Shown here one piece after another: positions 11,869 to 52,987 of a stretch of 64,000 bases of DNA. The stretch's first letter is position 1, and the number at the start of each line of letters is the position of its first letter. The position numbers were made by a program, and so were the translations under genes. Location of the stretch: contig SUVP01000011.1 of assembly GCA_015061945.1 (NCBI GenBank), forward strand, positions 6,572 to 70,571, written 5' to 3'. Under the pieces are notes generated by a model. It was not told the origin of the DNA, made no database searches, and worked only from the letters and a program-made list of their open reading frames with translations. The stretch is from Opitutales bacterium (GTDB lineage: Bacteria; Verrucomicrobiota; Verrucomicrobiia; Opitutales; Intestinicryptomonadaceae).

Positions 11869-11872
11869 CGTC
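11860..11872. repeat. 13-bp direct repeat, copy 2 (GACGATGAATAAC on the minus strand)
   Basis: Identical to 10536..10548; contains the stop of the dnaX-downstream frame and the rmuC start. Confidence 0.85.
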
Positions 11873-12235
11873 ATCATCCTCCAACGATTCCACAAGAGAA
11901 TCGTCCGTCAACATTGAATCGTCTGACAGTTCTTTTTGTTCTTCCTGTGTTTCTTCGACAATTCCGCCAGCGACCAATGTTTGTGGTTTACTTCCGAACT
12001 GTGAGTACAAAACATCTAACAAGCCTTGCGAGATTTTCTGCATAGCGTCTTCAAACTGAGCAGTACCCTCCTCGTAAATCTCAATTTTAGAAGTGTCCTG
12101 TTGAGCTTCGACAATCTTCTTTTTCTTTGGCGAACGGTCTATTTCAGCAGTGAACGCTTGGGCAAATTCTCGAGATTCTGCCAAAACTTGTCGAAGTAGT
12201 TCAGCTATTTTTTTTTTGAACTTCTGCGGGAGCAC
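11861..12235 (-). CDS. Acidic reading frame overlapping the dnaX 3' end; candidate +1-frame C-terminal extension of DnaX (tau-like tail)
   Basis: The only start is a GTG inside dnaX with no evident RBS. The frame opens across the A10 run, and its stop overlaps the rmuC ATG, which suggests it is translated. Confidence 0.65.
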
Positions 12236-13334: not shown

Positions 13335-13402
13335 TATCCAACCACTTTATTCTACCCATTTTTTAAGACAAGTTTTTTCTTCAAAAATAATGATATATCG
13401 AC

Positions 13403-13433
13403 AAAAAAAAGCGAGTGGCGGTTTGCCACTCGC
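13403..13433 (-). terminator. Intrinsic terminator
   Basis: gcgagtggc/gccactcgc 9-bp stem followed by T8 on the minus strand. Confidence 0.85.
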
Positions 13434-13454
13434 GAGCTTTAGTTTGATATAAAA

Positions 13455-36009: not shown

Positions 36010-37068
36010 TTATCCAAGATTGATAATCTGTTTATCGAACGAGAAAATTACAGGTTTACCCCATACCGCATCAGCCCTGACCTTCTCAAATTCAGGATTT
36101 GTTAAGATTTCAATTCCGTGGTGGACGAACATAATATCGTCAACAGCGTTTGGATATTTTTGTTTAATTCTTTGGCAAAGGAGTTCTGCTTTATGATGCC
36201 CTGTTTCAATCATTAGAATATCAATGTTGCCGTCTTTGAAGAATGGTGCGAGATCGTCTTCATTTTTGATATCGCCCGAGAATACTATCGTTTTGTTTAT
36301 CGACGGAATTTTTATTCTGTATGAGAACGATTGGCACTTACCAGCTTTTGTAGGCTTCATGTGGCGATTTTCGATTGCGTCGACTATGATATCATCATCA
36401 CGGAAAACTTCGCCTTGTTTGACGAGGTTTGTGGTCAAGCCTGTTGGATTACTTTCTCGCCATATCATTTTTGTGGCAGAATCAGCCAACAATTTTGTCG
36501 GGGTATGCAGAGTGAGTTTAAATTGTTTTTTGTTTTTAAGTTTATACACCCAGTAGTATTTTTTGATTGCTGAAAATAACGCTGGAAGCCCGCAACAGTG
36601 GTCTCCGTGTGGGTGCGATATAAATATATTTGTCGATTTTGTAATATCCAAATCCATCAAGCCGGCAGTCCACGAGCAATACTCACCAGCGTCGAACCAA
36701 ATCAATTCGCCAGTTGGTTTTTCGAGAATCCACGATGTATGATTGTGGTCGTGCCAAGGTTCAGTTCCTGCAGCAGTGCCGAGCATACGGATTTTCCATT
36801 TGCCGTCGCCTTGTTGGCTTATTTTGCGAGATTCAATCGCACGATTTTCGTTGAGATATTGTTTCCAAATTTCATCACGCAATGCAGTTGCTTGTTCGAT
36901 TGACATTGCGAGAGCGTCGGCTTTTGTGCCGTGAAAATTTGGTTTAAGGATAAATTTTTGGACGTGCTTTTTAGGAGCATTATCTGCCGAACATCCAGCC
37001 GAGCAAACGCTGATTGTAAAGAGTGCTCCAACGTTTTTTATAAATTTTCTTCTGCTTGAATTTTTCAT
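36010..37068 (-). CDS. Tat-exported MBL-fold metallo-hydrolase (RNase Z / AtsA-like)
   Basis: SRRKFIK twin-Arg signal, LGTAAG, FDAGE, HPHGDH, FSGDIK, ETGHH, FVHHG. Confidence 0.85.
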   Translation of the reverse strand: MKNSSRRKFIKNVGALFTISVCSAGCSADNAPKKHVQKFILKPNFHGTKADALAMSIEQATALRDEIWKQYLNENRAIESRKISQQGDGKWKIRMLGTAAGTEPWHDHNHTSWILEKPTGELIWFDAGEYCSWTAGLMDLDITKSTNIFISHPHGDHCCGLPALFSAIKKYYWVYKLKNKKQFKLTLHTPTKLLADSATKMIWRESNPTGLTTNLVKQGEVFRDDDIIVDAIENRHMKPTKAGKCQSFSYRIKIPSINKTIVFSGDIKNEDDLAPFFKDGNIDILMIETGHHKAELLCQRIKQKYPNAVDDIMFVHHGIEILTNPEFEKVRADAVWGKPVIFSFDKQIINLG

Positions 37069-37073
37069 AATTT

Positions 37074-38117
37074 TTATAATTCTATTGTTTGTTTATCTTG
37101 TGCAAAAATTATCGGTTTACCCCATACTGCTTCGGCTCTGGCTCTTTCAAAATCCATATTTAAAGCTACACGTGCACCATGGTGCAAAAACAAAATATCT
37201 TTTACTGCATTTGGATATTTTTCTTTCAGTTTTATGCAGTGATTTTCTGGTAAGTGATGTCCAGTTTCGAGCATAATAAGATCGCAATTTCCGTCTTTTA
37301 GGAACGCATCCATATCTTCAAGACTTTTGATATCACCTGAAAATATAATCGTTTTGTGCGGAGCAGAAAGAAGTTTTATGCGGAACGAGTACGAAAGAAA
37401 TTTGCCTTGTGGAGTCGGCTTCATGTGATAATTTCCGAGTGCCTCAATAACGACATCGTCATCGCGATAAATCTCACCATTTTTTAATCCAACAAAGTTT
37501 ATACCCAAGTTAATTTTTCCGCCAAAATAAATTTCGCTAGCACGAATCATTCTATTATCGAAAGCATATACAGTGAAGCCGTCAGGCACAAACTTTCGTT
37601 TTTTTGAATCAGCTAATCGCAAGTGATTATAAAAAGAAACAATCAAACCAGTGAAACCACCGATATGGTCGAGGTGCGGATGCGATATAAAAAGATTTTT
37701 CGTTTGCGTGATATCCAGATTCATATTCGATGCAGTCCACGAACAATACTCGCCTGCATCAAACCAAAGGAGTTCTCCGCTCGGTTTTTCGAGAATCCAC
37801 GATGTATGATTATGGTTTGGATTCGGCTCAGAACCACACCATGTGCCGAGCATATGGATACGCCATTTACCACAACCTTGTTTACTTAACTGGCGTTTGT
37901 AATCGCTCATACGCTTTACTAATAAGTCGGCATATTGCTTACGTCTGACAAGTCGTGCCTCTTCATAAGTTAAAGCGACTGCTTCCTCCTGCTCTTTTGC
38001 CGATAATTTTGCGACCTTCCATGCTCCACGAAGTGAATTTGCCGATATTCCGACAGCAAGCATTGCCCCTGTACGCATTAAAAATTCACGTCTTGTTTGA
38101 GATATTCCCTTTTTCAT
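37074..38117 (-). CDS. Tat-exported MBL-fold metallo-hydrolase, tandem paralogue
   Basis: Start reassigned to MKKGISQTRREFL (twin-Arg). HPHLDH, FSGDIK, ETGHH, FLHHG; collinear with 36010..37068. Confidence 0.85.
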   Translation of the reverse strand: MKKGISQTRREFLMRTGAMLAVGISANSLRGAWKVAKLSAKEQEEAVALTYEEARLVRRKQYADLLVKRMSDYKRQLSKQGCGKWRIHMLGTWCGSEPNPNHNHTSWILEKPSGELLWFDAGEYCSWTASNMNLDITQTKNLFISHPHLDHIGGFTGLIVSFYNHLRLADSKKRKFVPDGFTVYAFDNRMIRASEIYFGGKINLGINFVGLKNGEIYRDDDVVIEALGNYHMKPTPQGKFLSYSFRIKLLSAPHKTIIFSGDIKSLEDMDAFLKDGNCDLIMLETGHHLPENHCIKLKEKYPNAVKDILFLHHGARVALNMDFERARAEAVWGKPIIFAQDKQTIEL

Positions 38118-38295
38118 ATAACTAAATATTTCTTTTAAGAGTAATAAAATTAGAAAAAAGAAAAAAGTCGAGAATATAAAAGAGTGTATCAATTAGAATA
38201 ATACGAAATGAAGAAAAAAAATTTAAAAAAAGTTAAAAAAAAGACTTGCCAAGTTGTAAAAAATAAACATCGTATTGGTCTTTATTAAAAAACTT

Positions 38296-38417: not shown

Positions 38418-38589
38418 GTGCGTACAGATTGCGATAAGAAGATGATTTTTTAAGGTAAGAGAAAATTTGGTTAAAGGGATAAGCAAAGAAAAGGCTATTT
38501 TTCCTTATTTTGGCAAATAAAAATGTTTTAATATTAGGGTCTTATTGCTCTTGACTTTTCTTTGTATTCTGACATTTATATTTATCATT

Positions 38590-40293
38590 ATGAAAAAGAA
38601 ATTATCGTTTTTAACAATTATATGCACGCTTGCGACAGCTTCTGCATTCGCTACGGCTACAGATTTAGTCGGTTCTCCTAGTGTTTCACCCAGAAAACCA
38701 TTCACTGATGCCGGAACAACAGGATTAGATTTGAATCTTGTTCCACCTGAAAATACTGCAACAGGTACAACTTTGTATTATATCGGTACGGCTGTAAATG
38801 TATCAAAAATTACAACAACCGAAGGCTATAAATACAATATCGCTAACGGCTTTACGCTCGATACAAACACCGCTGGTTCAGCAGTAGGTATTCAAGATAA
38901 TTCGACATCATTAACTTTCGCGAATCCAACAACCACTGCATCACCCACTGGTGCTCTTACTGTAAAGAATTCTGCTGGTAATTATGAAACGATAATAAAT
39001 TCTAATAAGTTAGTTATTGCTCAAACTAATCCAGTAGGTACCCGTACGAATGCAGTTCAAGTCCATACAGATCTCACTGTAAACGCAAAAGATTTTCAAG
39101 TAACATGCAATATTGACCCTCAAAAAGCTGTTACATTTGTAGAAGTTCAAGGCAGTAGAGTTCTAAAAATTAAAGGTGGAACTTTTACGTTAGGTGCTAA
39201 CGCTCTAATGAAAGGCTTTCTAGCTTCAACAATAGATTTACAATCGGTTTCGACAATAAGTGGCACAATCAATTTAAATGGTTATCTCAAAATAAATGAG
39301 AATACAACTGTTGAAAATGGTGGAACAGTGCTTTTCAGATCAGCATCAAATTCAAAAAACGAAACTGGTATTCTATTTGGCGAAGGAAAAACTATTACGT
39401 TTAACTCGGGTAGCTCACTTGTTTTAGGTGGAAATTCCAGTGCTGCGAACGATAAGTCTCATACACAAACATTCACAAACAAAAACGTTGTTTTTAATGG
39501 TGGTAATCTCCAGGTTCAAGGTGGTTGGGACCTCAATTACGATGCACCTGAAGGAACAGATGTATCAAAAACAAATATCAATTTGGGTTCGCTCACACTC
39601 GGTGGTTTGAATACATCTAGCGTGATGACATCAGGCGCAATGAAGGTTGGCAAATACAACAGAGTACAAGCAAAGAATGTTGTAATTAACCAAGACTCAT
39701 TCTACGAAGGCTATGGTGCTATCGACGTGAAAGACGGTGGTTCAATCACATTAGAAGAAGGATCTGGTATTCTCCTCCAAGACATCGATACAGGCGTCTC
39801 TAACCGTGGTCGCATCATCTTGCGTAGCAATAGCACAGTTAATATCAATGGCGTTTCAAGCCTCTCAAGAATCGATGCAAATGGAAATACAAAGAACGGC
39901 GTTTTGTTGGCAATCACTGGTGCTACAACATTCAATGTTAATGCTGATGTATCGTTTGGAACGATAGCAAACTCATCTGCATCGACAATGACAATCAACC
40001 TCCTCAACGATTTGGCTACGTTTAAAATCGCTGATATGGAAAGCACTTTAAACGAAAACGCACGCATTGTTGTGAACAACTTCCAAAACGATAGAGTCTA
40101 TTTTGGTGGTGATACGATACAAAACTACCTCGATAGATTTGTATTGCAAGACGCTAATGGCAACCTCTTGAATGGTGCAATATCAATCAACAATGGTTGG
40201 CTCACATTGACAGCAGTTCCAGAACCAGCTGAATGGGCAATGATATTCGGTGCAATCGCTCTCGGATTGGCAGTATATCGTCGCAGAAAGTAA
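38590..40293 (+). CDS. PEP-CTERM surface protein, Thr/Asn/Gly-rich, probably beta-helical
   Basis: Start reassigned to MKKKLSFL (signal peptide). C-terminal VPEPAEWAMIFGAIALGLAVYRRRK. Confidence 0.9.
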   Translation: MKKKLSFLTIICTLATASAFATATDLVGSPSVSPRKPFTDAGTTGLDLNLVPPENTATGTTLYYIGTAVNVSKITTTEGYKYNIANGFTLDTNTAGSAVGIQDNSTSLTFANPTTTASPTGALTVKNSAGNYETIINSNKLVIAQTNPVGTRTNAVQVHTDLTVNAKDFQVTCNIDPQKAVTFVEVQGSRVLKIKGGTFTLGANALMKGFLASTIDLQSVSTISGTINLNGYLKINENTTVENGGTVLFRSASNSKNETGILFGEGKTITFNSGSSLVLGGNSSAANDKSHTQTFTNKNVVFNGGNLQVQGGWDLNYDAPEGTDVSKTNINLGSLTLGGLNTSSVMTSGAMKVGKYNRVQAKNVVINQDSFYEGYGAIDVKDGGSITLEEGSGILLQDIDTGVSNRGRIILRSNSTVNINGVSSLSRIDANGNTKNGVLLAITGATTFNVNADVSFGTIANSSASTMTINLLNDLATFKIADMESTLNENARIVVNNFQNDRVYFGGDTIQNYLDRFVLQDANGNLLNGAISINNGWLTLTAVPEPAEWAMIFGAIALGLAVYRRRK

Positions 40294-40309: not shown

Positions 40310-40346
40310 AAGACCTTCTTTTTACACAAGAGAAGGTCTTTTTTTT
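40310..40346 (+). terminator. Intrinsic terminator
   Basis: aagaccttct...agaaggtctt followed by a T run. Confidence 0.8.
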
Positions 40347-40371: not shown

Positions 40372-42618
40372 ATGAAAAACTTATTTATTTTTGTATTTAT
40401 AGCTTTGTTGAGCGTCTTTTCATACGCTGATGACATCGCACTTTTGCCTACCTCCGACAAAGATAAACCAGCAATTTCATACGACTATTTCCCAAGCCGA
40501 TTACATGCCTTTGTTTTCAGAAATTGGACAAGCATACCTGTCGAGACCCTCGCAAAAACAATCTCTGCAACACCTGCTCAAATAAATGAGATTGCCTCTG
40601 AAATGGGACTTCCACCCCAACGAAAAATTCAAGCTGAATGGATTTCCCCAAACGGCTATATTACCGTACTTCGCCGAAACTGGCACATTTTGAATTATCG
40701 CCAACTTTTGATATTGTTAGATGTCGATGCAAAAACATTGCGTTCAAGATTAGATTACGACGATTTCCTTTTTGGTAAACTTGGTAATTTTAAGCCAATT
40801 TGCGATGAGTTGCACTACAAAAAATCGACACAAGCAGTAAAAGAAAAAGCAAAGCATATCGCCAATTTGCTTAAAAAAAATCAGATAGAAAAAATAAACC
40901 AAGAGTGCGAAAAATTTGCCTTTTTTAAAAAATTTTCAAAAACAAAAGGTTTGCAAATTAAAAAAAATAATAACGAAAACATCAACATTGCATCGTCATA
41001 TTTTTCAGATTTTAGCGATCCACTTTTGACAGATGTCTCGTATCCAGAAGGCTTGCTTGAAGAACTCGCCTCTCGTGGAGTAAATGGTGTATGGCTTCAC
41101 GTTGTGTTGAATATGCTTGTTGAACCAGACGGGATATTTCCAGGCTCGAAAGACGCAAAAAGGAGAATTGCAAACCTCAATAAACTAATCGAACGTGCTG
41201 ACAAATTTGGCATAAAAGTGTGGTTATATTTCAACGAGCCACGAGGTATGGAAGGAAAATTCTACGAACAATCGCCAGCACACAAGGCAATTCGTGGAGC
41301 AAAACATCAGTCAAAAGATATCTACTGTATGTGTACATCAAATAAAGATGTTATGCAGTGGCTTTCTAAAAGCGTTGAAAAAGTGTCGAGCCAAACCCCT
41401 AAATTAGGTGGTGTATTCACAATCACTGCTTTTGAAAACCCTACAAACTGCCACTCGGGACGCAACCACAAAACGTGTCCACGATGCAAAGATAAAAAAG
41501 GCTACGATGTAATTTCAGAAGTAAATAACACAATTTTCAGAGCCTTGCGCAAAAGCAACCCATCGGCAAAACTTATTGCGTGGGACTGGGGCTGGATAAA
41601 TAAAGAAGTAGAAAAAACAATCGAACGCCTCGACAAAGATATAATTTATATGGCGTTGAGCGAAAGAGATATTCCCCTCAACTTTGGTGGTGTAAAAGCC
41701 AAGATAAATGAGTACGCACTTTCGGTTGTAGGTCCGAGCCAGAGAGCCTTGGAAAAATGGAAATACGCACAAGCAAACAAAATTGCACAAATGGCAAAAA
41801 TCCAAATAAATCTCACTTGGGAGTTTGCCTCAACCCCTGCTCTACCATTGTTAAAAACTGTTGCCCAGCACAGCAGAAATTTGAAAAACGCTGGAATAAA
41901 TAATTACTTTTTGTCGTGGAGCTTGGGTGGGTATCCGTCTGAAAATATGGAACTTTTTAATTCGTACGACATCACAAAAAGCGTCAAAGAAAATATGATG
42001 CGTATTGCTGAAAAATATTACGGCAAAAAATCGGCTGAAAAAATCTGCACAGCATGGGAGATATTTTCAGATAGCTTCAAAGAATATCCGTTCGATGTTT
42101 ACACAATTTACAAGGGTCCACACAACGTCGGCGTTGCAAACCCAATATACGCACGCAAGACAAATTTTAGTGCAACTATGGTCTGCTACCCTTTCGACGA
42201 TTTAAAAAGCTGGCGTTCCATTTATCCTGAAAATATTTATATCGACCAAATGCGTAAAGTTGCAACGGGTTTCAGCAAGGCACTTGAAGTCTTGGAAAGT
42301 GTCGACACAAATGATATGACAAATTCAGAAAAATCGCATTTCATACAAATGAAAAATTGGGCGACAACTGCATACATCCACTTTGCGTCGACGGTTAATC
42401 AGGCAGAATTTGTGAAATTGCGCGATGAACAAAAACAAGCAAACATTGGTAAAATACAAACAATTCTCGACTCCGAAGAAACGCTCACAAAACGTCAACT
42501 TGAAATAGCCTTAGTCGATACATACGTTGGCTTTGAATGTGCCAACCACTATTATTATACTGCAATAGATTTCTTTGAAAAGTTGATTAGTATAGACTTT
42601 GCACGCAAAAACTTTTAA
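40372..42618 (+). CDS. Secreted hypothetical protein with putative TIM-barrel and NEP motif; paralogue of 45225..47459
   Basis: Signal peptide MKNLFIF..., FPSRLHAFVFRNW, GVNGVWLH, WLYFNEPRG, CTS...ENPTNC...CPRC, SWSLGGYP. Confidence 0.8.
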   Translation: MKNLFIFVFIALLSVFSYADDIALLPTSDKDKPAISYDYFPSRLHAFVFRNWTSIPVETLAKTISATPAQINEIASEMGLPPQRKIQAEWISPNGYITVLRRNWHILNYRQLLILLDVDAKTLRSRLDYDDFLFGKLGNFKPICDELHYKKSTQAVKEKAKHIANLLKKNQIEKINQECEKFAFFKKFSKTKGLQIKKNNNENINIASSYFSDFSDPLLTDVSYPEGLLEELASRGVNGVWLHVVLNMLVEPDGIFPGSKDAKRRIANLNKLIERADKFGIKVWLYFNEPRGMEGKFYEQSPAHKAIRGAKHQSKDIYCMCTSNKDVMQWLSKSVEKVSSQTPKLGGVFTITAFENPTNCHSGRNHKTCPRCKDKKGYDVISEVNNTIFRALRKSNPSAKLIAWDWGWINKEVEKTIERLDKDIIYMALSERDIPLNFGGVKAKINEYALSVVGPSQRALEKWKYAQANKIAQMAKIQINLTWEFASTPALPLLKTVAQHSRNLKNAGINNYFLSWSLGGYPSENMELFNSYDITKSVKENMMRIAEKYYGKKSAEKICTAWEIFSDSFKEYPFDVYTIYKGPHNVGVANPIYARKTNFSATMVCYPFDDLKSWRSIYPENIYIDQMRKVATGFSKALEVLESVDTNDMTNSEKSHFIQMKNWATTAYIHFASTVNQAEFVKLRDEQKQANIGKIQTILDSEETLTKRQLEIALVDTYVGFECANHYYYTAIDFFEKLISIDFARKNF

Positions 42619-42635
42619 TTTAAAAATAGAAAAAT

Positions 42636-45155
42636 ATGAAGAAGATTATCACAACAACATTGGTATTGCTGACGATTTTTTCGGTCGGGTGCAAGAAACG
42701 TGATCCAGAAGTCAGCAAGGTTGAAATTATAAATGGCGTTCCACGTCTAATTGTGCAAGGCGAAGTTGTACGTCCACGCTCGCTGTATGTATCGCCAACC
42801 TATTTCATTTTAGGCTCGCCAACCGATAGAAATATTTATGCAAATACCGATGTTGAAACTTTCATCGAAATACCTGCAATGAACACTCCATTGAAAAATG
42901 CGTCGATTGAGATGAAGTCGGGTAAGCCTGCAGAATTCACGCTTTATAGCTTAAAAATCAAAGAAGAATTTGGCGAACAAAAAGAAGTTTTTAATCTCGA
43001 TATAAAAGAGCCGTTGCAACTTTCAACAAATAATGAAATCGAGTTCAAGAATGTAAATCTTCAAGCAAACAAGAGCTATCGTATCTATTATAAAGTTAGA
43101 GCAAAACAACAATTTTATCTGAAAACTTATTTGGCAAAAGATGGCAAATTGTTTGCACCTATATTGAAGTCGCACGTTGGTGCTCAAGTGAAAATCGCAA
43201 AAGACGCTGGAATAGACATCATAACATTCCCTGTTCAAGTGGCAGATTTTATGCAAGAAAATGGCAAGCCAAATATCGACAATTTAAAGAACACACTCGA
43301 CGAGATTATTTCGGCAAACCCAAACGCAAAAATTATTGTCCGTGTGCGTTGCTATCCTCCCAAATGGTGGAACAAAAAATATCCCGATGATATGACTTAC
43401 ACTGCTGACGGCAAACAAGGATTTTTCGCAAGCATAATCTCGCCAAGATTTCGCAAAGATGTCGGGAATGCGTTTACACAAATTATCAAATATTGCGAAG
43501 CAAATTATAACAAAAATGTAGTCGGATACCACGCTGGTGGAGGAAATTCTTGCGAGTGGTATATGACTGACACTTGGAGAAACCCACGTTTTAGACAAGG
43601 CTACGGAAAGTCGGAAACAAATTCGTGGAGAACATGGCTTGCAAAAAAATATCCAAATTCACAAGCCTTGCAAAAAGCGTGGAATAATAAAAACGTCAGC
43701 TTGGAAACTGCACCTGTACCGACTCCACAAGAACGTAAAATCGACTTTTTGTCTAATCCACAAACGCAACAAAATGTGATAGATTTTAACAGATTTCGCC
43801 AAGACGAAGTTTCGGCAACTGTCAACTTCTTCGCAAAAATTATACGCACAAATGCACCAAAGAAACTCGCCCTAACCTTCTACGGCTACACAGCACAATT
43901 CTCCAACCATATCAATGGTGCTGGCGTTACTGGACACTTTAATCTTTGGAATACTTTGAAGTCGGAAAATATCGATATTTTCTGTGCGCCAACCTCGTAT
44001 TTTTATCGTGCACTCGGTACACCGACAATCAATATGACAGCGTCTGAAACAATTACACGTGCTGGCAAAATTTGGCTCGACGAAGACGATATTCGCACTC
44101 ACAGATGCCCTCCGACAGAACAACAAGTGTCAGGCTTTGAAACGTGCTTGAAAAATGTCGACGAAACAAAAGAAATTCTCAAACGCCAAATGATTCACGA
44201 AGCAATCAAAAACAATGCGTCATGGTGGATGGATTTGACTGGTTTGGGCTGGTACGAAGAAGCAGAAATTTGGGAAGTTCAAAAGATGTTTGATAAAATC
44301 GAAAAAGACATTATCGAAAACGGAAAATTGTACGAACCTGAATTTGCATTATATGCCGACGAACGCTCAATCTTGCACTCGAGCCTCACAAGTAAATCAA
44401 AATGCACAACGGGACTTTTCAATTTGTACGAAAAAAATTTCACAAAATTCGCAACCCCATATGGCAAGTATCTCTTTGCTGATTTTGCGTACGGCAAGCC
44501 AATCAACGCAAAACTCCACCTCTTTGCGTCAACCTACGCACTCACTGCGAACGAGCGAAAAATTATGCGAGAAAAAACACGCAACACATGTGCAATTTTT
44601 GCGTGGATTCCAGCGTACATAGATGCCGACAAAAATGTTTTCTCTGAAAATGCAGTCGAAGAAGCAACTGGTTTCAAAGTTAAGCTCGCAAAGAATTTGA
44701 CATCGGCAAAACTCAATCCAACTTCATACGGGAAGAAAATTGGCATAACAGAAACATTCGGCTTTGATGAAAATGTTGAACCATTACTTATCCCCGAAAC
44801 AAAGTCTGGCGATATCGTATTTGCGACATATCAAGACGGCTCGCCTGCTGTTGTCTTGCGTGGCAAACATCTTTTCTGTGGCGTTGCAAATATCCCTGAC
44901 GCACTCACAACATATATGTTAAAGCTCGCAAAAGTTCATCGCTACTCACAACAAAATGTGCTTGTTACGGCAAACGATAAATACGTTGGTGCTACTTGTA
45001 TCGACGGAATAATCGAACCACACGATGTGAAGTTCAACTTCAAAAACAAATGCAAAATCTTTGACGCTTTCACAAATGAAAAGCTCGGGAATAATGGTAC
45101 TGCGACTATAAAAATGAAACGTGGCGACACTCGCGTGTTCCGTCTCGAAAAATAA
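42636..45155 (+). CDS. GH42-like (clan GH-A) glycoside hydrolase, predicted lipoprotein
   Basis: Lipobox FSVGC, PPKWWNKKYP, GGGNSCEWY, WRTWLAKKYPNSQALQKAWN, WLDEDDIRT, WMDLTGLGW. Confidence 0.75.
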   Translation: MKKIITTTLVLLTIFSVGCKKRDPEVSKVEIINGVPRLIVQGEVVRPRSLYVSPTYFILGSPTDRNIYANTDVETFIEIPAMNTPLKNASIEMKSGKPAEFTLYSLKIKEEFGEQKEVFNLDIKEPLQLSTNNEIEFKNVNLQANKSYRIYYKVRAKQQFYLKTYLAKDGKLFAPILKSHVGAQVKIAKDAGIDIITFPVQVADFMQENGKPNIDNLKNTLDEIISANPNAKIIVRVRCYPPKWWNKKYPDDMTYTADGKQGFFASIISPRFRKDVGNAFTQIIKYCEANYNKNVVGYHAGGGNSCEWYMTDTWRNPRFRQGYGKSETNSWRTWLAKKYPNSQALQKAWNNKNVSLETAPVPTPQERKIDFLSNPQTQQNVIDFNRFRQDEVSATVNFFAKIIRTNAPKKLALTFYGYTAQFSNHINGAGVTGHFNLWNTLKSENIDIFCAPTSYFYRALGTPTINMTASETITRAGKIWLDEDDIRTHRCPPTEQQVSGFETCLKNVDETKEILKRQMIHEAIKNNASWWMDLTGLGWYEEAEIWEVQKMFDKIEKDIIENGKLYEPEFALYADERSILHSSLTSKSKCTTGLFNLYEKNFTKFATPYGKYLFADFAYGKPINAKLHLFASTYALTANERKIMREKTRNTCAIFAWIPAYIDADKNVFSENAVEEATGFKVKLAKNLTSAKLNPTSYGKKIGITETFGFDENVEPLLIPETKSGDIVFATYQDGSPAVVLRGKHLFCGVANIPDALTTYMLKLAKVHRYSQQNVLVTANDKYVGATCIDGIIEPHDVKFNFKNKCKIFDAFTNEKLGNNGTATIKMKRGDTRVFRLEK

Positions 45156-45172
45156 TGTAGGCAGAAATAACC

Positions 45173-45216
45173 AAACAAAAAACTGCATCATGGAAATCCG
45201 ATGCAGTTTTGTTTTT
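45173..45216. terminator. Bidirectional intrinsic terminator
   Basis: aaaactgcatc-atggaaatcc-gatgcagtttt between convergent genes. Confidence 0.75.
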
Positions 45217-45224
45217 GTTAGTTT

Positions 45225-47459
45225 TTAGCGAGCGTAATCTATGCTCAAAAGTTTTTCGTAAACATCTATTGCAGTAAAGAAATAGTGGTTTGACGATTCA
45301 TACCCAATGTGCGCGTCTTTCTTTAAATTACTAATCATTTCCTTTGCGAGCAATTCTTCGGAATCGAGAATTTTTGCGAGACGCTTCGGGGAAAATGGTA
45401 CAGATTTATCGCGAAGTTGCAAATACTCTGCTTGGTTGACAGTCGATACAAAATGAATTCGGGCAACATCAGACCATATAAACATTTTCTCAAATTCTGC
45501 CTTTTGCGTCGGAGTCATTTTTGATGTATCCACACTTCTGAAAATTTCCATTCCCTTGACAAATCCATCGGCAACTTTGCGCATTTGAGAGATGTAACCC
45601 TCCTCGGAGAATATCGAACGCCAACCCTTTAAATCGTCGTATGGATACCCTACCATTGTTGCGCCGTAGTTAGTTTTTTCTGTATAAATGGGGTTCGCAA
45701 CGCCAACATTATGTGGAGCACGATACAGCCCTCTTATATAAAACGGATACTCCTCAAAGGCAGATGAAAATATCTCCCATGCTTTTAAAATTTTTTCTGT
45801 TTGCGAAGTGCCGTAATATTTTTCTGCAATAAAACGCAAATTTTCTTCGAGAGATTTATTGATGTCGTATCGGTTAAAAAGCTCCAAGTTTGGAGTTGGG
45901 TAGCCACCCAAACTCCACGACAAAAAGAAATCGTGTATGCCATTTTCGCGAAGTGCTTTTGAGTGTCGCCCTGCGATATTCATAACTGGTAATGCTGGTG
46001 TTGATGCGAACTCCCACGATATATTCACTTGAACTTTAGCCATTGTGCGTATGCCTAAATCTTTTGCAAACTTTGCACACTCGATAGAATCGGCACTTGG
46101 TCCAACAACAGACAATGAGTATTCAAAAATCTTTGCATTTGCACCACCTCGTTTCATCTCGCAACCAATTTCGCTGACGAGCATAACGATTATCCCTTTA
46201 TCGAGTTTCGGCAAAATTTCTTTAAATGTTTTCTTACCCCAACGCCAATCCCACGCAATCAATTCTGACGCTGGCGATACTCGTTTTATTGCACGATAAA
46301 TTGTGTTATTGACTTCCGCAATAACATCGGCACGCCCACGAGCCTCGCATACATTGCACGCTTTATCATAACCTGTGCGAGCCAAACAGTTTGTCGGGTT
46401 TTCCGACGCTGTAATTGTAAATACCCCACCTAAATTTGGCACTTGAGTAAAAATGCGTTCTGTTGCTTGCGAAAGCCACTGTAAAACTTCTGGTTTTGAT
46501 GTACACAATGTTCGCACATTAAAGTATGGATAATGTGCACCAGCCAACGCCATTCGCTCGGGCGACGACTCAAAGAAAGAATCGTGCAATCCGCGTGGCT
46601 CGTTGAAATAAAGCCAAATTTTTATACCATATTTTTCGGCACGTTTAATTAGGTTGTTGAGATTTTTTATACGCGTTGGTGCGTCTTTAGAACCTTTAAA
46701 AACTCCCATTGGTTCTACAAGCGAGTTCAACACAACGTGCAACCAAACGCCATTGACACCTTTTTTTGCGAGTTCTTCAAGCAATCCGTCGGGATAAGAT
46801 TTATCCGACATCAACGGGTCTGCATATTCGGAAAAATACGAAAACGCAATTCTGATATCGTTATCTTTTTGCACTATAAAATCGCCTTTAGCATTTGCAA
46901 AATTTTTGATAAATGTAAATTTTTCGGCTTCGTCAAAAAGCGTTTCGATTTTTGCAGAACGCAAAATCTTTGCAACGCGTTTCGATTTTTCTTTGATTTC
47001 AGAAGTAGGCTTTTCGTATTTCAGCTCGTTGCAAATCGGTTTAAAGTTGCCGAGCTTTTGCAAAAGGAAGTCCTCATCTATCAGGCGATGGTTTAGCGTC
47101 TTTGCGTCGAGCCCTGTTAAAATCAGTAATTGACGATAATTGAGCAAGTGCCAATTTCTGCGAACAACCGTAATATACCCCTTGGGAGATTCCCATAGTG
47201 GCGAAATTTTCTTTTGTGGAGGAAGCCCCATATCTGACGCTATTTCTTCAATCTGCGTTGGTGTAGCATCAACAACTTTTGCGAGGCGTTCAACACTCAC
47301 ACTTGTCCAATTTCTAAAGACAAATGCGTGCAAGCGACTCGGAAAATATTTATATTCGATTGAAGGTTTTTGTGCACTTGAATGAGGCAAAATAGTTATG
47401 TCGTTAGCAAATAAAAAGTTTGCGACAAAACACGACAACATAATAAAAATCGTTCTCAT
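45225..47459 (-). CDS. Secreted hypothetical protein, paralogue of 40372..42618
   Basis: Signal peptide, FPSRLHAFVFRNW, GVNGVWLH, WLYFNEPRG, CTS...ENPTNC...CNVC, SWSLGGYP. Confidence 0.8.
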   Translation of the reverse strand: MRTIFIMLSCFVANFLFANDITILPHSSAQKPSIEYKYFPSRLHAFVFRNWTSVSVERLAKVVDATPTQIEEIASDMGLPPQKKISPLWESPKGYITVVRRNWHLLNYRQLLILTGLDAKTLNHRLIDEDFLLQKLGNFKPICNELKYEKPTSEIKEKSKRVAKILRSAKIETLFDEAEKFTFIKNFANAKGDFIVQKDNDIRIAFSYFSEYADPLMSDKSYPDGLLEELAKKGVNGVWLHVVLNSLVEPMGVFKGSKDAPTRIKNLNNLIKRAEKYGIKIWLYFNEPRGLHDSFFESSPERMALAGAHYPYFNVRTLCTSKPEVLQWLSQATERIFTQVPNLGGVFTITASENPTNCLARTGYDKACNVCEARGRADVIAEVNNTIYRAIKRVSPASELIAWDWRWGKKTFKEILPKLDKGIIVMLVSEIGCEMKRGGANAKIFEYSLSVVGPSADSIECAKFAKDLGIRTMAKVQVNISWEFASTPALPVMNIAGRHSKALRENGIHDFFLSWSLGGYPTPNLELFNRYDINKSLEENLRFIAEKYYGTSQTEKILKAWEIFSSAFEEYPFYIRGLYRAPHNVGVANPIYTEKTNYGATMVGYPYDDLKGWRSIFSEEGYISQMRKVADGFVKGMEIFRSVDTSKMTPTQKAEFEKMFIWSDVARIHFVSTVNQAEYLQLRDKSVPFSPKRLAKILDSEELLAKEMISNLKKDAHIGYESSNHYFFTAIDVYEKLLSIDYAR

Positions 47460-47502: not shown

Positions 47503-47530
47503 AAAAAAGCGAACTCATTTGAGCTCGCTT
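47503..47530 (-). terminator. Intrinsic terminator
   Basis: Minus strand aagcgagctc-aaat-gagttcgctttttt. Confidence 0.7.
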
Positions 47531-47546
47531 AAATTTGATTTTAAAT

Positions 47547-49442
47547 TTATTTTTGCTTAAACCACGTTTTAATTTCAGAGACGCTGTCGAATGTTTTTCC
47601 AGCCGAGCCGTAATTTATAAAACGTCGCCACTTGCCATTTTCGAGAAGTACATCAACTGCGATATGTACATTTTTTAAGCAAACAGGCTTCCAAACGGGC
47701 TTGCCATTTTCAAGTTTAATCGGAGCTGGCTCGCCAAAATCTGCCGTGTAAAGTTGATCTTGAACGAGCGTATATCGACCTTTTGAAAGGCTGATTAAAT
47801 CGCTCCCAGCTGGGTCTTTTACAATCTTGATATCGGAATTAAATGTTAGCGATATTTCGTCGCCATTTTTCCAGTTGCGAACAATTTTACAATACGATGC
47901 TGGCGTTGCGTTGAATGTTTCTTTGCCGTTTACAACAACGCTTGGCGAGTCGCACCAACGTGGAATTCGGAAAGCAATTTCAAATTTTGCAGTGTCGTCT
48001 TTGATTCCCGACAATTTCACTTTTGCAGTGTCGTTAAAGATAAAATCGACATCGCTCATAATTAAATCGACATTACCATTGCCGTACGACAATGTCGCAT
48101 TGCTCTTTTCGTAAAAATTCACAACTACACCATTTTTGCTCGTCATATATGCGAACTTTGGTGCAAGGAACAAACTGCGTATACCATTTGTCGAACAGCA
48201 AGTTTTCTTTGTTGCTCTTTCTTTGAATCTACGGCCTCTCGCTCCGTCCATTGGGGTTGAACCAATCCACGATTCGCCCAAAGAATCGAGGTGTGCAATC
48301 AAGCCATTATACATCGAAAGCTCGATATGGTCGGCGTACTGGACATCGCCAGTCAGACGCAAAAGTTGTCCGCAAAGTTTAATCCAAGTGGCAGTTACGC
48401 AAACTTCGTTCCAGCAAAGGTGTCCATTTGTTTGAATAAACTTGCCTTTCACCCACTGCTCGTGGATAGCACCCGAACCTACGACATTTATCTCTGTATC
48501 TCTAATACTGCGTGCATGGTTGAGAACTGCTTTCAAATATTTTTCATCGCCTGTTGTACGATAAAGTTCTGCGAGACCCTCAAAACACGAAGCCATTTCA
48601 TACGCTTTTGAAAGCCCGCACTTGAGATATTGATTTAAATTGAGAGGCTCTTTGCCGTCATAAAACATATCGAGAACATCAGTATTTTTCAGTGCTTTGT
48701 TGAGCAAATCAGGCTTAATTGGCGATTTCTCCCAGCGTCCGACAATCCAATTTGCGTAATCGAGATACTTTTGTTCTCCCGTTGCACGATACAAAAGAAC
48801 AATCGGTTCGAGAATACTTGTCGACGCACAACCAAACCAACAACCAATTTGCACAATATCTTTCTTACCTTCGCCGACGTGTTGCATTATGTAATCGGTA
48901 TGGCGTCTTGCGGAATCGAGCACCTTTTTATCGCCAGTGCGTGTGTAATAATCGAGAAGTCCGAGCAAGGTATATTTTCTTCCCCACAAGTCCCACGAGA
49001 TTTTATCTTTGTAGCCAAAACCACCTGTTTCATTTAATTTAAATTCGTGTGCTTTTTGATATGTTGTGATTGACCCATACTCGTCTTGTGTCGACATCAA
49101 GTCGGCTATTGATTTATCCAAGCGAGCTTTAAAATAATACGATGGTTTATAATCGTAAGCAAGCAATGCCCCAGTGAACCACTTTCCCCAAAATTCGCAA
49201 TCCCAACGACGTGTTTCTGGACGCGTGCGAAATGGTGTTACCAAACTATCAATCTCGCAAACTAAAACATCGCCACGCAACGACAATTCGAGAGTATCGC
49301 CCAAAACGCCTTGCAATTCAACCTTTGTAGGTTCGGAATATTTAAAAGCGTCATCAACCTTAGGTTTTACGACATCGCCAGCAAACAGCAAATTTACATT
49401 TGTAAATGCCCCTATCAAAACAGATAAATAAAAACGTTTCAT
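47547..49442 (-). CDS. GH127/GH146-like beta-L-arabinofuranosidase family protein (DUF1680)
   Basis: WDCEFWGKW, KAYEM, NEVCVTATW (ETC-like), DHIELSMYN, CCSTNG, FRIPRWC. Start taken at MKRFYLS. Confidence 0.85.
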   Translation of the reverse strand: MKRFYLSVLIGAFTNVNLLFAGDVVKPKVDDAFKYSEPTKVELQGVLGDTLELSLRGDVLVCEIDSLVTPFRTRPETRRWDCEFWGKWFTGALLAYDYKPSYYFKARLDKSIADLMSTQDEYGSITTYQKAHEFKLNETGGFGYKDKISWDLWGRKYTLLGLLDYYTRTGDKKVLDSARRHTDYIMQHVGEGKKDIVQIGCWFGCASTSILEPIVLLYRATGEQKYLDYANWIVGRWEKSPIKPDLLNKALKNTDVLDMFYDGKEPLNLNQYLKCGLSKAYEMASCFEGLAELYRTTGDEKYLKAVLNHARSIRDTEINVVGSGAIHEQWVKGKFIQTNGHLCWNEVCVTATWIKLCGQLLRLTGDVQYADHIELSMYNGLIAHLDSLGESWIGSTPMDGARGRRFKERATKKTCCSTNGIRSLFLAPKFAYMTSKNGVVVNFYEKSNATLSYGNGNVDLIMSDVDFIFNDTAKVKLSGIKDDTAKFEIAFRIPRWCDSPSVVVNGKETFNATPASYCKIVRNWKNGDEISLTFNSDIKIVKDPAGSDLISLSKGRYTLVQDQLYTADFGEPAPIKLENGKPVWKPVCLKNVHIAVDVLLENGKWRRFINYGSAGKTFDSVSEIKTWFKQK

Positions 49443-49663
49443 TAAAGATAGAAATATTTTAAGCAATTATTTGCGTCAAGGTTTTTCGGATAAATTCCAC
49501 ATAAAACCAACTATATTAAACATTGTAATTATGGATAAAAAACGAACACGATAAAAAATCTGCAAAAAAACGCAAAAAGTGAAAAAAATAGCTTGCAAAG
49601 TAAATTTTTAACGGCACTATTCTGTAAATCAATTTTTATTTAAACATATAAATTATTCAAAAA

Positions 49664-50923: not shown

Positions 50924-52987
50924 ATGCACAAAACTTTTCTATTTTTTGCAATATCTTTTGCGATAACATTGGCAAATGCACAAATTTTTGTTTCGACAAA
51001 AGGGTCAGATAAAACTGGCAATGGCTCGCAAAATGCTCCATTTGCTACGCTCGCCCGTGCGATAAAATCGCTTTCGGCAAACCAAAATAAAATCATCATT
51101 GAAAGTGGTGTTTACGAAATAAATACCCCATTAATAATAAATAAACTCGGATTCGATAAAAAATGTATCGAGATTGAAGGCAACGGGAAGGTCGAATTTA
51201 TCGGAGCAAAAAGAGTGTCGGCAAAATTGCTCGAGAAAGTAGATGACAAACAATTTCTATCAAAATTCAGGAATCCCGAAATAACAACTTTGTACAAGCT
51301 TGATTTGAAAAAGCTCGGGATTACTGAATATGGAAAACTTAAGAAACGTGGTTTTGCATCGAACACTTTTCCGATGCAAATGGAAGTATTTTATAGCGTG
51401 TCGAGAGAAATGCACTTGGCAAAATATCCAAACTTTGGCAAGTTGCATATCGGTAAGTTAATCGACGCTGGATATGCACCAAGCGAACAAAAAAATGCTA
51501 CTCCCGCAGAAAAAAAACGTCGGGCAAAATTCATTTCCGCACACGATATTGCTCCATATTGGTATGATGATGACGACTTGTGGCTGTCGGGAATATTCTC
51601 GTATGGTTGGTGCGACGACCACCAGAAAGTCAAAAAAATCGATCGCCAAACAAATGAGATTGAGCTGTCCTACCCACACTGCTATGGAGTGATGAGCTCG
51701 CACCCTGACTTTGCAAAAAATAAACAAGATATATCCGTTCGTGGATACCATATTTACAATTCCCTCCAAGAAATTGACGCACCATACGAGTATTATATCG
51801 ACCGGAAAAATGGTATATTCTATGTGTCCTTGCCAATCACACCAAAAGATGACGATTACTTCGATTTCTCGATAACAGAAAAACCACTAATCTACATTTT
51901 AGATTCAAAAGATATCTTGATTAAAAATATCATTTTTTCGTCGGGACGTGGAAATGGTCTCGAAGTTTACGACTCGCAAAGAATAGAAGTTAATAGTTGC
52001 ACATTCAAAAATTTTGGACTTATGGGTGCTATCGCAACTCTATCAGAAAAAAAGCCTGCGACAACTTTAACAAAATATAAATTTGCAAAATGTACTTTCT
52101 TCGACAATGGCAGTGGCGGTATACAAATAGGCGGTGGCGACAGAAAGAAACTTACCCCCGCACGCAATCGCATTGAGGATTGCCTTTTCTACAACAACTG
52201 CAGAGTCAAAAAAAACTACGCTGCAGGCGTACATATCAGTGGCGTTGCAACAACTGTTGACCACTGCGAGTTCCGTGATACAGAACATCAACATCTAACT
52301 TTTGCTGGCAATGACCACACTATCGAAAACTCGATTTTTGCCGATGGTTGCAAAAATGCAAGCGATATGGGTGCTATCTACACTGGACGCAATCCAAGCC
52401 ACAAAGGTAATCAAATTAGAAATAATTTCTTCACAAATATCCAAGCAAAAGACAAAGATTCTAAAGTCTGTTCTATTTATATCGACGACGGCTCTGGCGG
52501 AATGAAAATCTACAAAAACATTTTCTGCAAAGCAAATACACCTGGTGCGTCGGATATGTTTGGTGCAATTTTCTTACACGGCGGACACGATAATGTTATG
52601 GATAAAAATGTCTTTATCGACTGCGAAGCGTCTATCGGACATACCCGTTGGGATAATAAAAAGTGGAAGAAATTTATCAACGAAGATTTCAAATATCGCC
52701 TCAAAGATGAAGTTGATATTGAGTCGGAACCATACAAAAAATATCCCGAGCTAAAAGACTTTTTCACAACTGAACGTGAACGTTTCAACCACGTTTTAAA
52801 CTCTCTTTTCTACAAGACTCGCCCGCCATATTGGGGAGACTTTAGGCTGGAAAATAAACTTTCAAAACTCGTTCCAAGTTCAAAGCCAAAAGTAAAAAAA
52901 TGGACACTCAAAGATGTCGAAAAATTCTTTGGCGAAAATCCGCTCATTGCTGATATTCTCAAAAAGAAAATCGGCATAAGAAAATAA
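50924..52987 (+). CDS. Secreted right-handed parallel beta-helix protein (pectin-lyase fold, putative glycan-active)
   Basis: Signal peptide, IFVSTKGSDKTGNGSQNAPFATLARA, beta-helix repeats (IEDCLFYNN, IENSIFAD, IRNNFF), DMGAIYTG, IYIDDGSGG. Confidence 0.8.
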   Translation: MHKTFLFFAISFAITLANAQIFVSTKGSDKTGNGSQNAPFATLARAIKSLSANQNKIIIESGVYEINTPLIINKLGFDKKCIEIEGNGKVEFIGAKRVSAKLLEKVDDKQFLSKFRNPEITTLYKLDLKKLGITEYGKLKKRGFASNTFPMQMEVFYSVSREMHLAKYPNFGKLHIGKLIDAGYAPSEQKNATPAEKKRRAKFISAHDIAPYWYDDDDLWLSGIFSYGWCDDHQKVKKIDRQTNEIELSYPHCYGVMSSHPDFAKNKQDISVRGYHIYNSLQEIDAPYEYYIDRKNGIFYVSLPITPKDDDYFDFSITEKPLIYILDSKDILIKNIIFSSGRGNGLEVYDSQRIEVNSCTFKNFGLMGAIATLSEKKPATTLTKYKFAKCTFFDNGSGGIQIGGGDRKKLTPARNRIEDCLFYNNCRVKKNYAAGVHISGVATTVDHCEFRDTEHQHLTFAGNDHTIENSIFADGCKNASDMGAIYTGRNPSHKGNQIRNNFFTNIQAKDKDSKVCSIYIDDGSGGMKIYKNIFCKANTPGASDMFGAIFLHGGHDNVMDKNVFIDCEASIGHTRWDNKKWKKFINEDFKYRLKDEVDIESEPYKKYPELKDFFTTERERFNHVLNSLFYKTRPPYWGDFRLENKLSKLVPSSKPKVKKWTLKDVEKFFGENPLIADILKKKIGIRK

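Follow-up and report, generated by a model that had tools for sequence, protein, structure and literature searches.

The subject of this report is a family of large exported proteins, two members of which are encoded within a 64,000-nucleotide (nt) stretch of DNA (contig SUVP01000011.1 of assembly GCA_015061945.1, positions 6,572 to 70,571 of the forward strand; hereafter the window) from a bacterium of the Opitutales, phylum Verrucomicrobiota. These two proteins, copy A and copy B, together with a third copy elsewhere in the genome, are best read, with a probability of roughly 0.55, as Sec-exported glycosidases of an uncharacterised family that branched from the group comprising GH20, GH67 and GH138 (GH, glycoside hydrolase) and that would act through a mechanism package built on two glutamates, E360 and E489. 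The family is a candidate new GH family in the GH20 superfamily, its distinctive features being the loss of the catalytic Asp of GH20, a glutamate pair associated with strands 4 and 7 of the barrel, and an N-terminal domain of novel type. Residue numbers for copy A follow an open reading frame (ORF) of 753 amino acids (aa) in which M6 lies at 40372, the position at which the public gene call for this copy (P0001, 748 aa) begins. The features that carry the argument are as follows.

40372..42618, plus strand: copy A, 748 aa from the Met at 40372 (the longest ORF, from 40357, has 753 aa); member of the GH20-related family
40372..40428, plus strand: signal peptide of copy A, Sec-type, MKNLFIFVFIALLSVFSYA followed by DD, read from sequence
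40474..40956, plus strand: predicted N-terminal all-helical domain, residues about 40-200, with FPSRxHAFVxRNW and RRNWHxLxYxQL repeats (AlphaFold2)
40975..41946, plus strand: predicted (beta/alpha)8 barrel, residues about 207-530 (DSSP on the model)
41233..41244, plus strand: N293-E294-P295-R296 (NEP motif), after strand 3; invariant in the family, lost in distant relatives
41332..41487, plus strand: segment around strand 4 with four invariant Cys (C326, C365, C374, C377), probably a structural Zn(Cys)4 site
41434..41436, plus strand: E360 in TITA[S/F]EN, end of strand 4; candidate general acid or acid/base
41821..41823, plus strand: E489 in K-I-Q-x3-[ST]-[WH]-E, seven residues after strand 7; candidate nucleophile or base
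41974..42612, plus strand: predicted C-terminal helical bundle, residues about 540-752 (AlphaFold2 model)
45225..47459, minus strand: copy B, 744 aa, sharing 56% identity with copy A
46401-46403 and 46011-46013, minus strand: E353 and E483 of copy B, which with E287 and C319/C358/C368/C371 are its equivalents of the copy A residues by alignment

The original prediction, made from the letters of the window, had described the pair as collinear ORFs of about 750 aa with a shared set of motifs, and this description holds. Both ORFs are present, they align end to end in BLASTP (420/746 identities, 56%; 74% positives; three gaps; E=0), and all the quoted motifs (FPSRLHAFVFRNW, RRNWHxLNYRQLL, GVNGVWLH, WLYFNEPRG, CTS...ENPTNC-x8/9-CxxC, SWSLGGYP and PHNVGVANPIY) occur in both copies. 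Each begins with a Sec-type signal peptide, with cleavage between SYA and DD in copy A and between LFA and ND in copy B.

The view that the pair belongs to no known family was likewise confirmed for Pfam, NCBIfam and the Protein Data Bank (PDB): neither copy, nor a profile built from 56 family sequences (profile A1), gave a sequence match to Pfam-A, to NCBIfam release 20.0 (June 2026) or to PDB chains up to April 2026. The family itself is large. Among 8,000 candidates scored from an index of 5.8 billion proteins 1,341 relatives were recognised, and within the best 120 of these none has a Pfam domain and every named one is a 'hypothetical protein'. An exhaustive profile search of 1.84 billion cluster representatives returned 2,705 proteins at E<=1e-3 (989 at E<=1e-30); the family has about 2,700 clusters at 50% identity. 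When one genome per species was scanned, the family was found at no fewer than 600 loci, and at least 600 species of Bacteroidota and PVC bacteria carry it, among them Alistipes and other Rikenellaceae, other Bacteroidales, Chitinophagaceae, Saprospiraceae, Kiritimatiellia, Verrucomicrobiota, Lentisphaerota and Planctomycetota; within the Verrucomicrobiota it occurs in 23 of the 151 genomes sampled, and the nearest homologues come from metagenome-assembled genomes (MAGs) of Opitutales.

Predicted fold and relation to known families

The proposal that these proteins are TIM-barrel glycosidases was borne out at the level of structure prediction. An AlphaFold2 model of copy A computed from a 56-row alignment has a mean predicted local distance difference test (pLDDT) of 92.7 and a predicted template modelling score of 0.91, and the eight barrel strands are placed by DSSP at residues 210-212, 244-248, 287-291, 352-356, 405-409, 430-434, 478-482 and 516-519. 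A Foldseek search of the PDB with this model gave 189 matches at E<=1e-3, the significant relatives all being glycosidases, and the leaders, all at probability 1.0 and with only 9-13% identity, were GH138 6hzg (4.9e-10), GH20C 5a6b (5.4e-10), GcnA 2epo (about 1e-9), GH67, GH89 2vca, GH115 and GH84. On the model, this similarity to the GH138/GH20/GH67 group is one of superfamily and not of family membership. The N-terminal domain modelled alone reached a pLDDT of 87.5 and found no relative in the PDB by Foldseek (best E 1.7, probability at most 0.12); a library of viral structures was uninformative.

Sequence profiles point in the same direction. With hhalign, profile A1 was compared with small alignments of known families built from genomes and loci, and it scored 91.5% against GH20 (E 8.7e-7), 81% against GH67 (E 1.2e-5) and 24% against GH89, the values for GH127, S9, the GH42-like neighbour described below, GH106, GH31 and DUF4838 all being 0.6% or less; all seven control families stayed under 1%. 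The stretch aligned to GH20 and GH67 spans strands 2-5. Within it GVNGVWLH aligns with the N..HwH motif of GH20 (H248 at HxH), KVWLYFNEPRG, which holds the NEP motif of strand 3, with 'I.VvPEIDlPGH' of GH20 and 'FLSINYASP' of GH67, GVFTITA[S/F]EN with 'IHIGGDE' of GH20 and 'VVKADSE' of GH67, and W409-D410 with the GH20 WDE. E360 is thus aligned with the Glu of the GH20 GGDE and with E285 of the GH67 enzyme AguA (the numbering of this acid, and of the GH67 bases D364 and E392, was verified on the PDB chain sequence), and because of these profile alignments it is E360, not E294, that holds the catalytic-Glu position of GH20 and GH67. The position of the GH20 catalytic Asp is occupied by Ser in at least 97% of members and by Phe in copy A. 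PF00728 is not among the 25 listed of the 29 Pfam families matched at E<=1 by the 56 members, and a Pfam scan of copies A and B at E<=0.01 gave no match to it; sub-threshold matches to GH67M occur in 20 of the 56 (best E 0.0031) and weak matches to DUF4838 (PF16126) in 9 (best E 5.7e-4).

Further evidence on ancestry comes from a sister subgroup. In many of its representatives, which have 800-900 aa, the match to the profile is split between positions 33-197 and positions 203-764, and an insert of about 60-135 aa (in most cases about 110-135) lies between the two parts. In P0138 this insert scores above threshold as the Pfam domain Glyco_hydro_20b (GH20b), at 29.9 bits against a cut-off of 26.1, and the barrels of the subgroup carry the same NEPR, SEN, Cys4, SE, E/D-Y and WE motifs. 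The GH20b domain is absent from copies A, B and C (C being the third copy). Since the sister subgroup keeps GH20b between the helical domain and the barrel, the ancestral architecture would thus have been helical domain, GH20b, barrel and bundle, with GH20b since lost in the subgroup of the window.

Compared family by family, the resemblance to GH20 (BT0459-type 6q63; GcnA/GH20C, 2epo and 5a6b) is the broadest, taking in the predicted order of a barrel followed by a helical C-terminal domain, the hhalign score, Foldseek E values of about 5e-10 to 1e-9, the aligned motifs, a collinear C...E...C...CxxC pattern and the GH20b domain retained by the sister subgroup. The differences are the missing PF00728 match, the replacement of the catalytic Asp by Ser or Phe, an identity of only about 10%, the extra N-terminal helical domain, the lack of GH20b in copies A and B, and the additional invariant E294, E436, E452 and E489. 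The best Foldseek match is the GH138 alpha-galacturonidase (BT0997/BPA0997; 6hzg, 6hze, 6hzf), which acts on chain A of rhamnogalacturonan II (RG-II) and aligns to the model (6hzg) with a TM-score of 0.44/0.47 over 647 columns and a root-mean-square deviation of 8 Å. The likeness lies in the barrel and helical domains and in the pectin-related contexts of the present family (GH28, GH127, GH106 and rhamnose genes); no GH138 chain appeared among the phmmer or hmmsearch matches to PDB sequences at E<=10. The catalytic residues of GH138 are presumably two Glu with a spacing of about 67 residues, which would resemble that of E294 and E360 in the present family. With GH67 (AguA 1k9d, GlcA67A 1gqi) the family shares the 81% alignment over strands 2-4, in which E360 falls on the acid E285 (KADSE versus TITASE), a C-terminal helical domain, and in one of its members a fusion to a CE15 glucuronoyl esterase. 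It differs from GH67 in lacking the N- and C-terminal GH67 Pfam domains and in possessing the Cys4 site, which is missing in GH67, and the region that holds the GH67 bases D364 and E392 gives only 0.1% in hhalign.

Several other candidate relatives were considered and rejected. GH163 and GH185 correspond to the Pfam domain DUF4838, and GH185 is a relative of GH20 with different catalytic residues that acts on N-acetylglucosamine derivatives with substrate assistance (PMC10570127). As distant GH20 relatives turned separate families, and given the weak DUF4838 matches noted above, they resemble the present family, but membership was rejected on an hhalign probability of 0.06-0.1% to the DUF4838 protein of the same genome and on the lack of a PF16126 match for A or B. 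GH42 (clan GH-A; 1kwg) likewise has a barrel with a Glu on each of strands 4 and 7, and with Cys clustered about the strand-4 Glu, but shows no sequence or profile similarity, the NEP of the present family lies on strand 3, and neither the GH42-like neighbour (0.6%) nor clan GH-A was retained as a relative. GH89 was rejected as closest relative on its hhalign value of only 24% and an inconsistent placement of the catalytic Glu. A by-eye match of KIQINLTWEF on strand 7 to EVQITQEY of GH67 (E392) was abandoned when hhalign of the trimmed halves gave 0.1% (8% for GH20). Finally, GH139 was considered because the gene order of the window (family member, GH42-like, GH127-like) mirrors the RG-II chain B steps 2-O-methylfucose, galactose and aceric acid. 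The GH95 fold is (alpha/alpha)6, and among the 50 Foldseek matches listed no entry is described as GH139 or GH95. GH139 was rejected on fold, a (beta/alpha)8 barrel being predicted here and the crystal structures of GH139 BT0984 being described as GH95-like in tertiary structure (PMC12282258).

Conserved residues, cysteine site and proposed mechanism

Among 194 non-identical members of the family the residues E294, E360, E436, E452, C326, C365, C374, C377, H248, K481, W488, W521 and D614 never vary; E489 is present in 193, the remaining one having Gly. A stricter comparison is offered by a second tier of relatives (E 1e-88 to 1e-48), recovered in the survey of Verrucomicrobiota, which match the barrel and bundle only and have no Pfam or PDB match. 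Six of these relatives keep E360, E489, E/D452-Y453, K481, Q483, C326, C365, C377, W246, W409 and W521; residues lost among them are N293, R296, D410, H248 and E294 (the last being P, V, P, G, E and E), and E436 aligns to a gap in three of the six. In these alignments the only carboxylates kept universally across the wider superfamily are E360, E489 and E/D452. A conserved Glu at beta-4 and another at beta-7, expected in the original prediction, are therefore present, but as E360 and E489. The second-tier relatives (L107-L112; G011, G034, G055, G097, G127) are 590-950 aa long and are without the N-terminal helical domain; up to seven matches to the family profile, most of them second-tier, occur in one Verrucomicrobiota genome, and one second-tier relative directly follows an M24 prolidase-like gene and another a GH42-like gene.

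The four cysteines, with the spacing C326-x33-E360-x4-C365-x8-C374-x2-C377, had been proposed to form a structural Zn or Fe-S site. As a set they stand, being invariant in the 194 members and collinear with the pattern VLC-x31-E-C-x7-CPKC of BT0459 (6q63), and C326, C374 and C377 align with Cys of the GH20 set. The Fe-S alternative does not fit the mode of export: the N-termini of the 194 members include 173 with a Sec-like hydrophobic run, 7 that are like those of the twin-arginine translocation pathway and 17 that are lipobox-like, and an Fe-S cluster is unlikely because Sec is the export route, while Fe-S proteins need to be exported folded. This leaves a Zn(Cys)4 site or two disulfides. 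A structural Zn is the probable choice, by analogy with the homologous Cys set of GH20, which probably holds a metal, and with the Cys cluster of GH42, a Zn site in the Thermus A4 enzyme (1kwg); a literature search on Zn in BT0459 or GH20 found nothing.

On the favoured reading E360 would serve as general acid or acid/base, and E489, following strand 7, as the nucleophile of a retaining enzyme or the base of an inverting one, as in GH67, so that a 4/7 Glu-Glu arrangement would replace the oxazoline route of GH20. E294 (in NEPR), D410, E436 and E452 would be subsite ligands, the first three shaping a family-specific -1 subsite; the four Cys would hold a structural Zn bracing the strand-3 and strand-4 loops, as probably in BT0459-type GH20, and the N-terminal helical domain would have an accessory role. 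Because the hallmark catalytic Asp of GH20 is lacking, another sugar is probably removed from plant glycans by a different chemistry, and the substrate may be a sugar at the non-reducing end of a glycan or glycoconjugate of the plant cell wall, either pectic rhamnogalacturonan I (RG-I) or RG-II, or of the arabinogalactan-protein (AGP)/extensin type.

A more specific evolutionary scenario can be put forward tentatively, at somewhat less than even odds. It holds that a GH20-type ancestor composed of GH20b, barrel and bundle acquired the helical domain, retained both the Cys4 metal site and the Glu of strand 4, dropped the Asp that polarises the acetamido group, recruited the strand-7 Glu, and switched to enzyme-carboxylate catalysis and to a specificity other than N-acetylhexosamine (HexNAc). 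Examples of the specificities that could have resulted are an alpha-uronidase or rhamnosidase acting on pectin or AGP side chains, or a glucosaminidase.

Copies, neighbouring genes and contexts across the family

The third copy, C, which is 57% identical to copy A, lies elsewhere in the 2.5-Mb genome (C4:7216-9459, minus strand; L093). It is 2 kb from a gene for a 745-aa DUF4838 protein of GH163/GH185 type (11742-13979, minus strand, of L093, G000:C4), and its surroundings contain methylmalonyl-CoA mutase and acyl-CoA genes. In a maximum-likelihood tree copies A, B and C all fall within a single clade made up of Opitutales only, and the duplications were therefore lineage-specific. Measured against the 142 positions that at least 95% of family members share, A has 13 departures, B 12 and C only 6, and this divergence of the three copies at otherwise conserved positions suggests split specificities. 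The departures of copy A include S359F (41431-41433), beside the putative catalytic Glu, and R443F (41683-41685). At least 97% of the family has Ser at the first of these positions and Arg at the second, and the Phe found at both in copy A suggests altered specificity or relaxed constraint there.

The surroundings of copies A and B within the window comprise the following features.

40310..40340, plus strand: terminator-like hairpin lying upstream, between copy A and the PEP-CTERM-type gene 38545..40293
42636..45155, plus strand: GH42-like lipoprotein, 839 aa, 17 nt downstream of copy A; Pfam GH42 match; lipobox
45179..45210, minus strand: terminator-like hairpin downstream of copy B, within the convergent gap of 70 nt
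47507..47530, minus strand: terminator-like hairpin between the GH127-like gene and copy B
47547..49466, minus strand: GH127-like gene, 639 aa, upstream of copy B
50924..52987, plus strand: right-handed beta-helix protein, 687 aa

That the pair brackets a GH42-like lipoprotein and adjoins a GH127-like gene, as originally described, agrees with the Pfam matches of both neighbours. The former matches GH42 at 5.4e-12 (46 bits against a cut-off of 21), has the lipobox LTIFSVGC, and has only weak relatives in the PDB (6y2k, 8.5e-5; 1kwg, 5.6e-4). The latter matches two GH127 domains, the catalytic one (8e-36) and the middle one (1e-15). Its best PDB relative (1.6e-25), the GH127 entry 5mqo, was deposited under the name of a non-reducing-end beta-L-arabinofuranosidase, and we take this entry to be BT1003 of B. 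thetaiotaomicron, the aceric acid hydrolase of the RG-II locus; the NCBIfam model for aceric acid hydrolases gives the GH127-like protein 137 bits, far under its cut-off of 950. Because of the 17-nt gap and the positions of the hairpins, copy A is probably transcribed as a unit with the GH42-like gene, and copy B probably on its own. The beta-helix protein had no match in a PDB sequence search. The GH42-like lipoproteins form an expanded family, with at least 12 full-length paralogues of 34-45% identity in the genome (window 1-2243, minus strand, cut by the window start; contigs C3, C12, C10, C8 with three in tandem, C4, C1 and C7), and contig C10 brings together a GH42-like gene, a canonical GH42 gene and a GH127-like gene that shares 48% identity with that of the window. 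On the other side of copy A, the PEP-CTERM-type gene directly upstream (38545-40293, plus strand) and a second one (34680-35933, minus strand) encode large secreted proteins with a common PEP-CTERM-like tail, VPEPAEWAMIFG.IALG.AVYRRRK; neither has a Pfam domain above the curated cut-off, the 34680-35933 protein showing faint pentapeptide-repeat matches only. Between these two genes sits a tandem pair of metallo-beta-lactamase-fold paralogues (36010-37068 and 37074-38192, both minus strand) with the twin-arginine motifs SRRKFIK and TRREFLM.

Across the family, the gene neighbourhoods to which the original prediction looked for guidance proved mostly unconserved, with some recurrent themes. When 907 neighbouring ORFs from 80 loci were clustered all against all, no partner recurred in more than 6 of 77 loci, and a conserved operon was rejected on this basis. 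Six independent contexts (the window, L009, L015, L060, L069 and L077) have a GH127-like gene within 10 kb, GH28 genes are found nearby in four (beside the two closest homologues and at two further loci), and GH42 or GH42-like genes are adjacent in three (the window, L110 and L113), the one at L110 standing next to a distant relative and sharing 26% identity over 432 aa (E 3e-27) with the protein of the window. Four Phycisphaerae loci (L046, L060, L067 and L069) combine a family member with a 527-aa protein without Pfam match and an S9 dipeptidyl-peptidase IV; at L060 and L069 a GH127-like gene is added between the 527-aa gene and the S9 gene, together with a GH51 alpha-L-arabinofuranosidase bearing a 3-keto-disaccharide-hydrolase domain. 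The cluster of L069, from the Sedimentisphaerales, also includes a homologue (7.5e-42) of the beta-helix protein of the window. As judged from their gene content, these Phycisphaerae clusters would suit the breakdown of hydroxyproline-rich glycoproteins.

A second theme is a co-directional module of genes for unk950 (a protein of about 950 aa), the family member, M24, CE4 and RhaT, which recurs in three loci of three lineages, with rhaM and DUF6786 in two of them. One locus is from Membranihabitans (Saprospiraceae), one from a Lentisphaeraceae MAG and one from a JGI metagenome contig, on which the family member is placed by the tree among Kiritimatiellia-type sequences, and because the cross-phylum similarity is high the module appears to have been transferred as a unit. 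The unk950 gene is found in all three (L001 2676-5549, L064 4990-7824, L113 5178-7976), has no Pfam match and no match in a PDB sequence search, and may encode a partner enzyme of the family member; unk950, M24, CE4, rhaM, DUF6786 and RhaT are absent from the genome to which the window belongs. In Agriterribacter the family gene is the only candidate glycosidase in a locus with an extracytoplasmic-function (ECF) sigma factor, an anti-sigma factor, SusC and SusD. Members of the family proper are found fused to a CE15 glucuronoyl esterase, a GDSL/CE2 esterase, a GH95-like domain and an alkaline phosphatase. The weight of these contexts favours the side chains of plant cell walls, in pectic RG-I/RG-II or in AGP/extensin, with uronic acid, rhamnose and non-acetylated hexosamine as candidate sugars.

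Alternative readings and significance

A number of points weigh against an E360/E489 glycosidase acting on plant glycans. The half of the barrel with strands 5-8 has no significant hhalign alignment to GH20 or GH67 (0.1-8%), and because these strands do not align E489 has no aligned counterpart in either family. The proximity of E360 and E489, like the clustering of the four Cys in space, would follow from the topology of the model and from conservation. As to context, a Pfam scan of 144 immediate neighbours gave no family more than four matches and many housekeeping genes; some hints point elsewhere, namely deacetylases (YdjC, PIG-L, CE4), GH20 genes and phosphoesterases near some members and, in the GH20b-bearing subgroup, fusions to AAC(3)-type N-acetyltransferases; and the adjacency of the GH42-like gene is weak evidence because of the abundance of GH42-like copies in the genome. 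A literature search covering about half of the relevant papers found no characterised member. To these points must be added the first two of the alternatives that follow.

It is conceivable, though rather unlikely, that the family has already been numbered in CAZy on the strength of a characterised member lying outside Pfam, NCBIfam, the PDB and the searchable literature, as a CAZy family often comes into being with neither a Pfam model nor a structure. This would have to be squared with named homologues that are all 'hypothetical protein', with the absence of a model in NCBIfam release 20.0, with the PDB, where no chain comes closer than a TM-score of 0.47 and 13% identity, and with a literature in which no characterised member was found; the one candidate considered, GH139, is described as GH95-like in fold.

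Unlikely, too, is a hexosaminidase with GH20-like substrate-assisted catalysis on a 2-acetamido sugar, in which E294 or N361 would replace the Asp; Asn fills the role of Asp in GH85. Such an enzyme would accord with GH20 being the closest relative by sequence profile, with the retained catalytic Glu and the GH20b domain of the sister subgroup, and with the GH20 genes within 10 kb at six loci and the deacetylases and NagB nearby, and GH185 offers the precedent of a GH20 relative with different catalytic residues (PMC10570127). It is opposed by the Ser that occupies the Asp position in at least 97% of members, by the absence of PF00728 among the families listed at E<=1, by fusions of family-proper members to CE15, CE2 and GH95-like domains, none of them HexNAc-related, and by the universal strand-7 Glu (E489), a hallmark of mechanisms that employ an enzyme nucleophile or base.

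The original prediction had taken the NEP motif to be the strand-4 acid/base of clan GH-A, and a retaining glycosidase of this GH42-like type, with E294 as acid/base on strand 4 and a strand-7 Glu as nucleophile, can now be regarded as improbable. The motif N293-E294-P295-R296 is invariant in the 194 members, a GH42-like gene is adjacent, and there is a conserved Glu after strand 7. In the model, however, N293-E294 comes after the third barrel strand (287-291), it is S/F-E360-N that closes strand 4, and E489 lies seven residues past strand 7; the NEP aligns with the non-catalytic strand-3 motifs 'EID-PGH' and 'SINYASP' of GH20 and GH67, hhalign against the GH42-like neighbour gives 0.6%, there are no Pfam matches to GH42 or GH-A, and in four of six distant relatives that keep E360, E489 and the rest of the site E294 has become P, V, P or G.

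A protein that is not a glycoside hydrolase at all, such as a glycan-binding or scaffold barrel, or a lyase, a phosphodiesterase on phospho-glycans or a transglycosylase, is equally improbable: the loss of the hallmark GH20 Asp, the housekeeping surroundings of most of the genes, the phosphoesterases that are the commonest immediate downstream neighbours (Metallophos 4/71), the Exo_endo_phos, PLC-like and purple acid phosphatase genes beside some members and the one alkaline-phosphatase fusion are outweighed by five invariant barrel-end carboxylates with Trp and His over about 2,700 clusters, which argue for sugar catalysis, by significant fold relatives that are all glycosidases, and by members that are the only candidate glycosidase in SusC/SusD polysaccharide utilisation loci.

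If the three copies are indeed exported glycosidases of a separate branch of the GH20/GH67/GH138 group, the result would be an added GH family, in a field where new GH families are found regularly, that is large and ecologically widespread: common in Bacteroidales of the herbivore and human gut (Alistipes and other Rikenellaceae) and present also in Kiritimatiellia, Verrucomicrobiota, Planctomycetota and soil Chitinophagaceae, with every member now annotated as 'hypothetical'. It would also represent a mechanistic switch within the GH20 superfamily, in which the catalytic Asp was lost and a conserved pair of Glu on strands 4 and 7 is found. The family would provide a handle on the recurring gene module of unk950, family member, M24, CE4 and RhaT, and assignment of its substrate would close a gap in some pathway of complex plant-glycan degradation and improve the annotation of carbohydrate-active enzymes in metagenomes.

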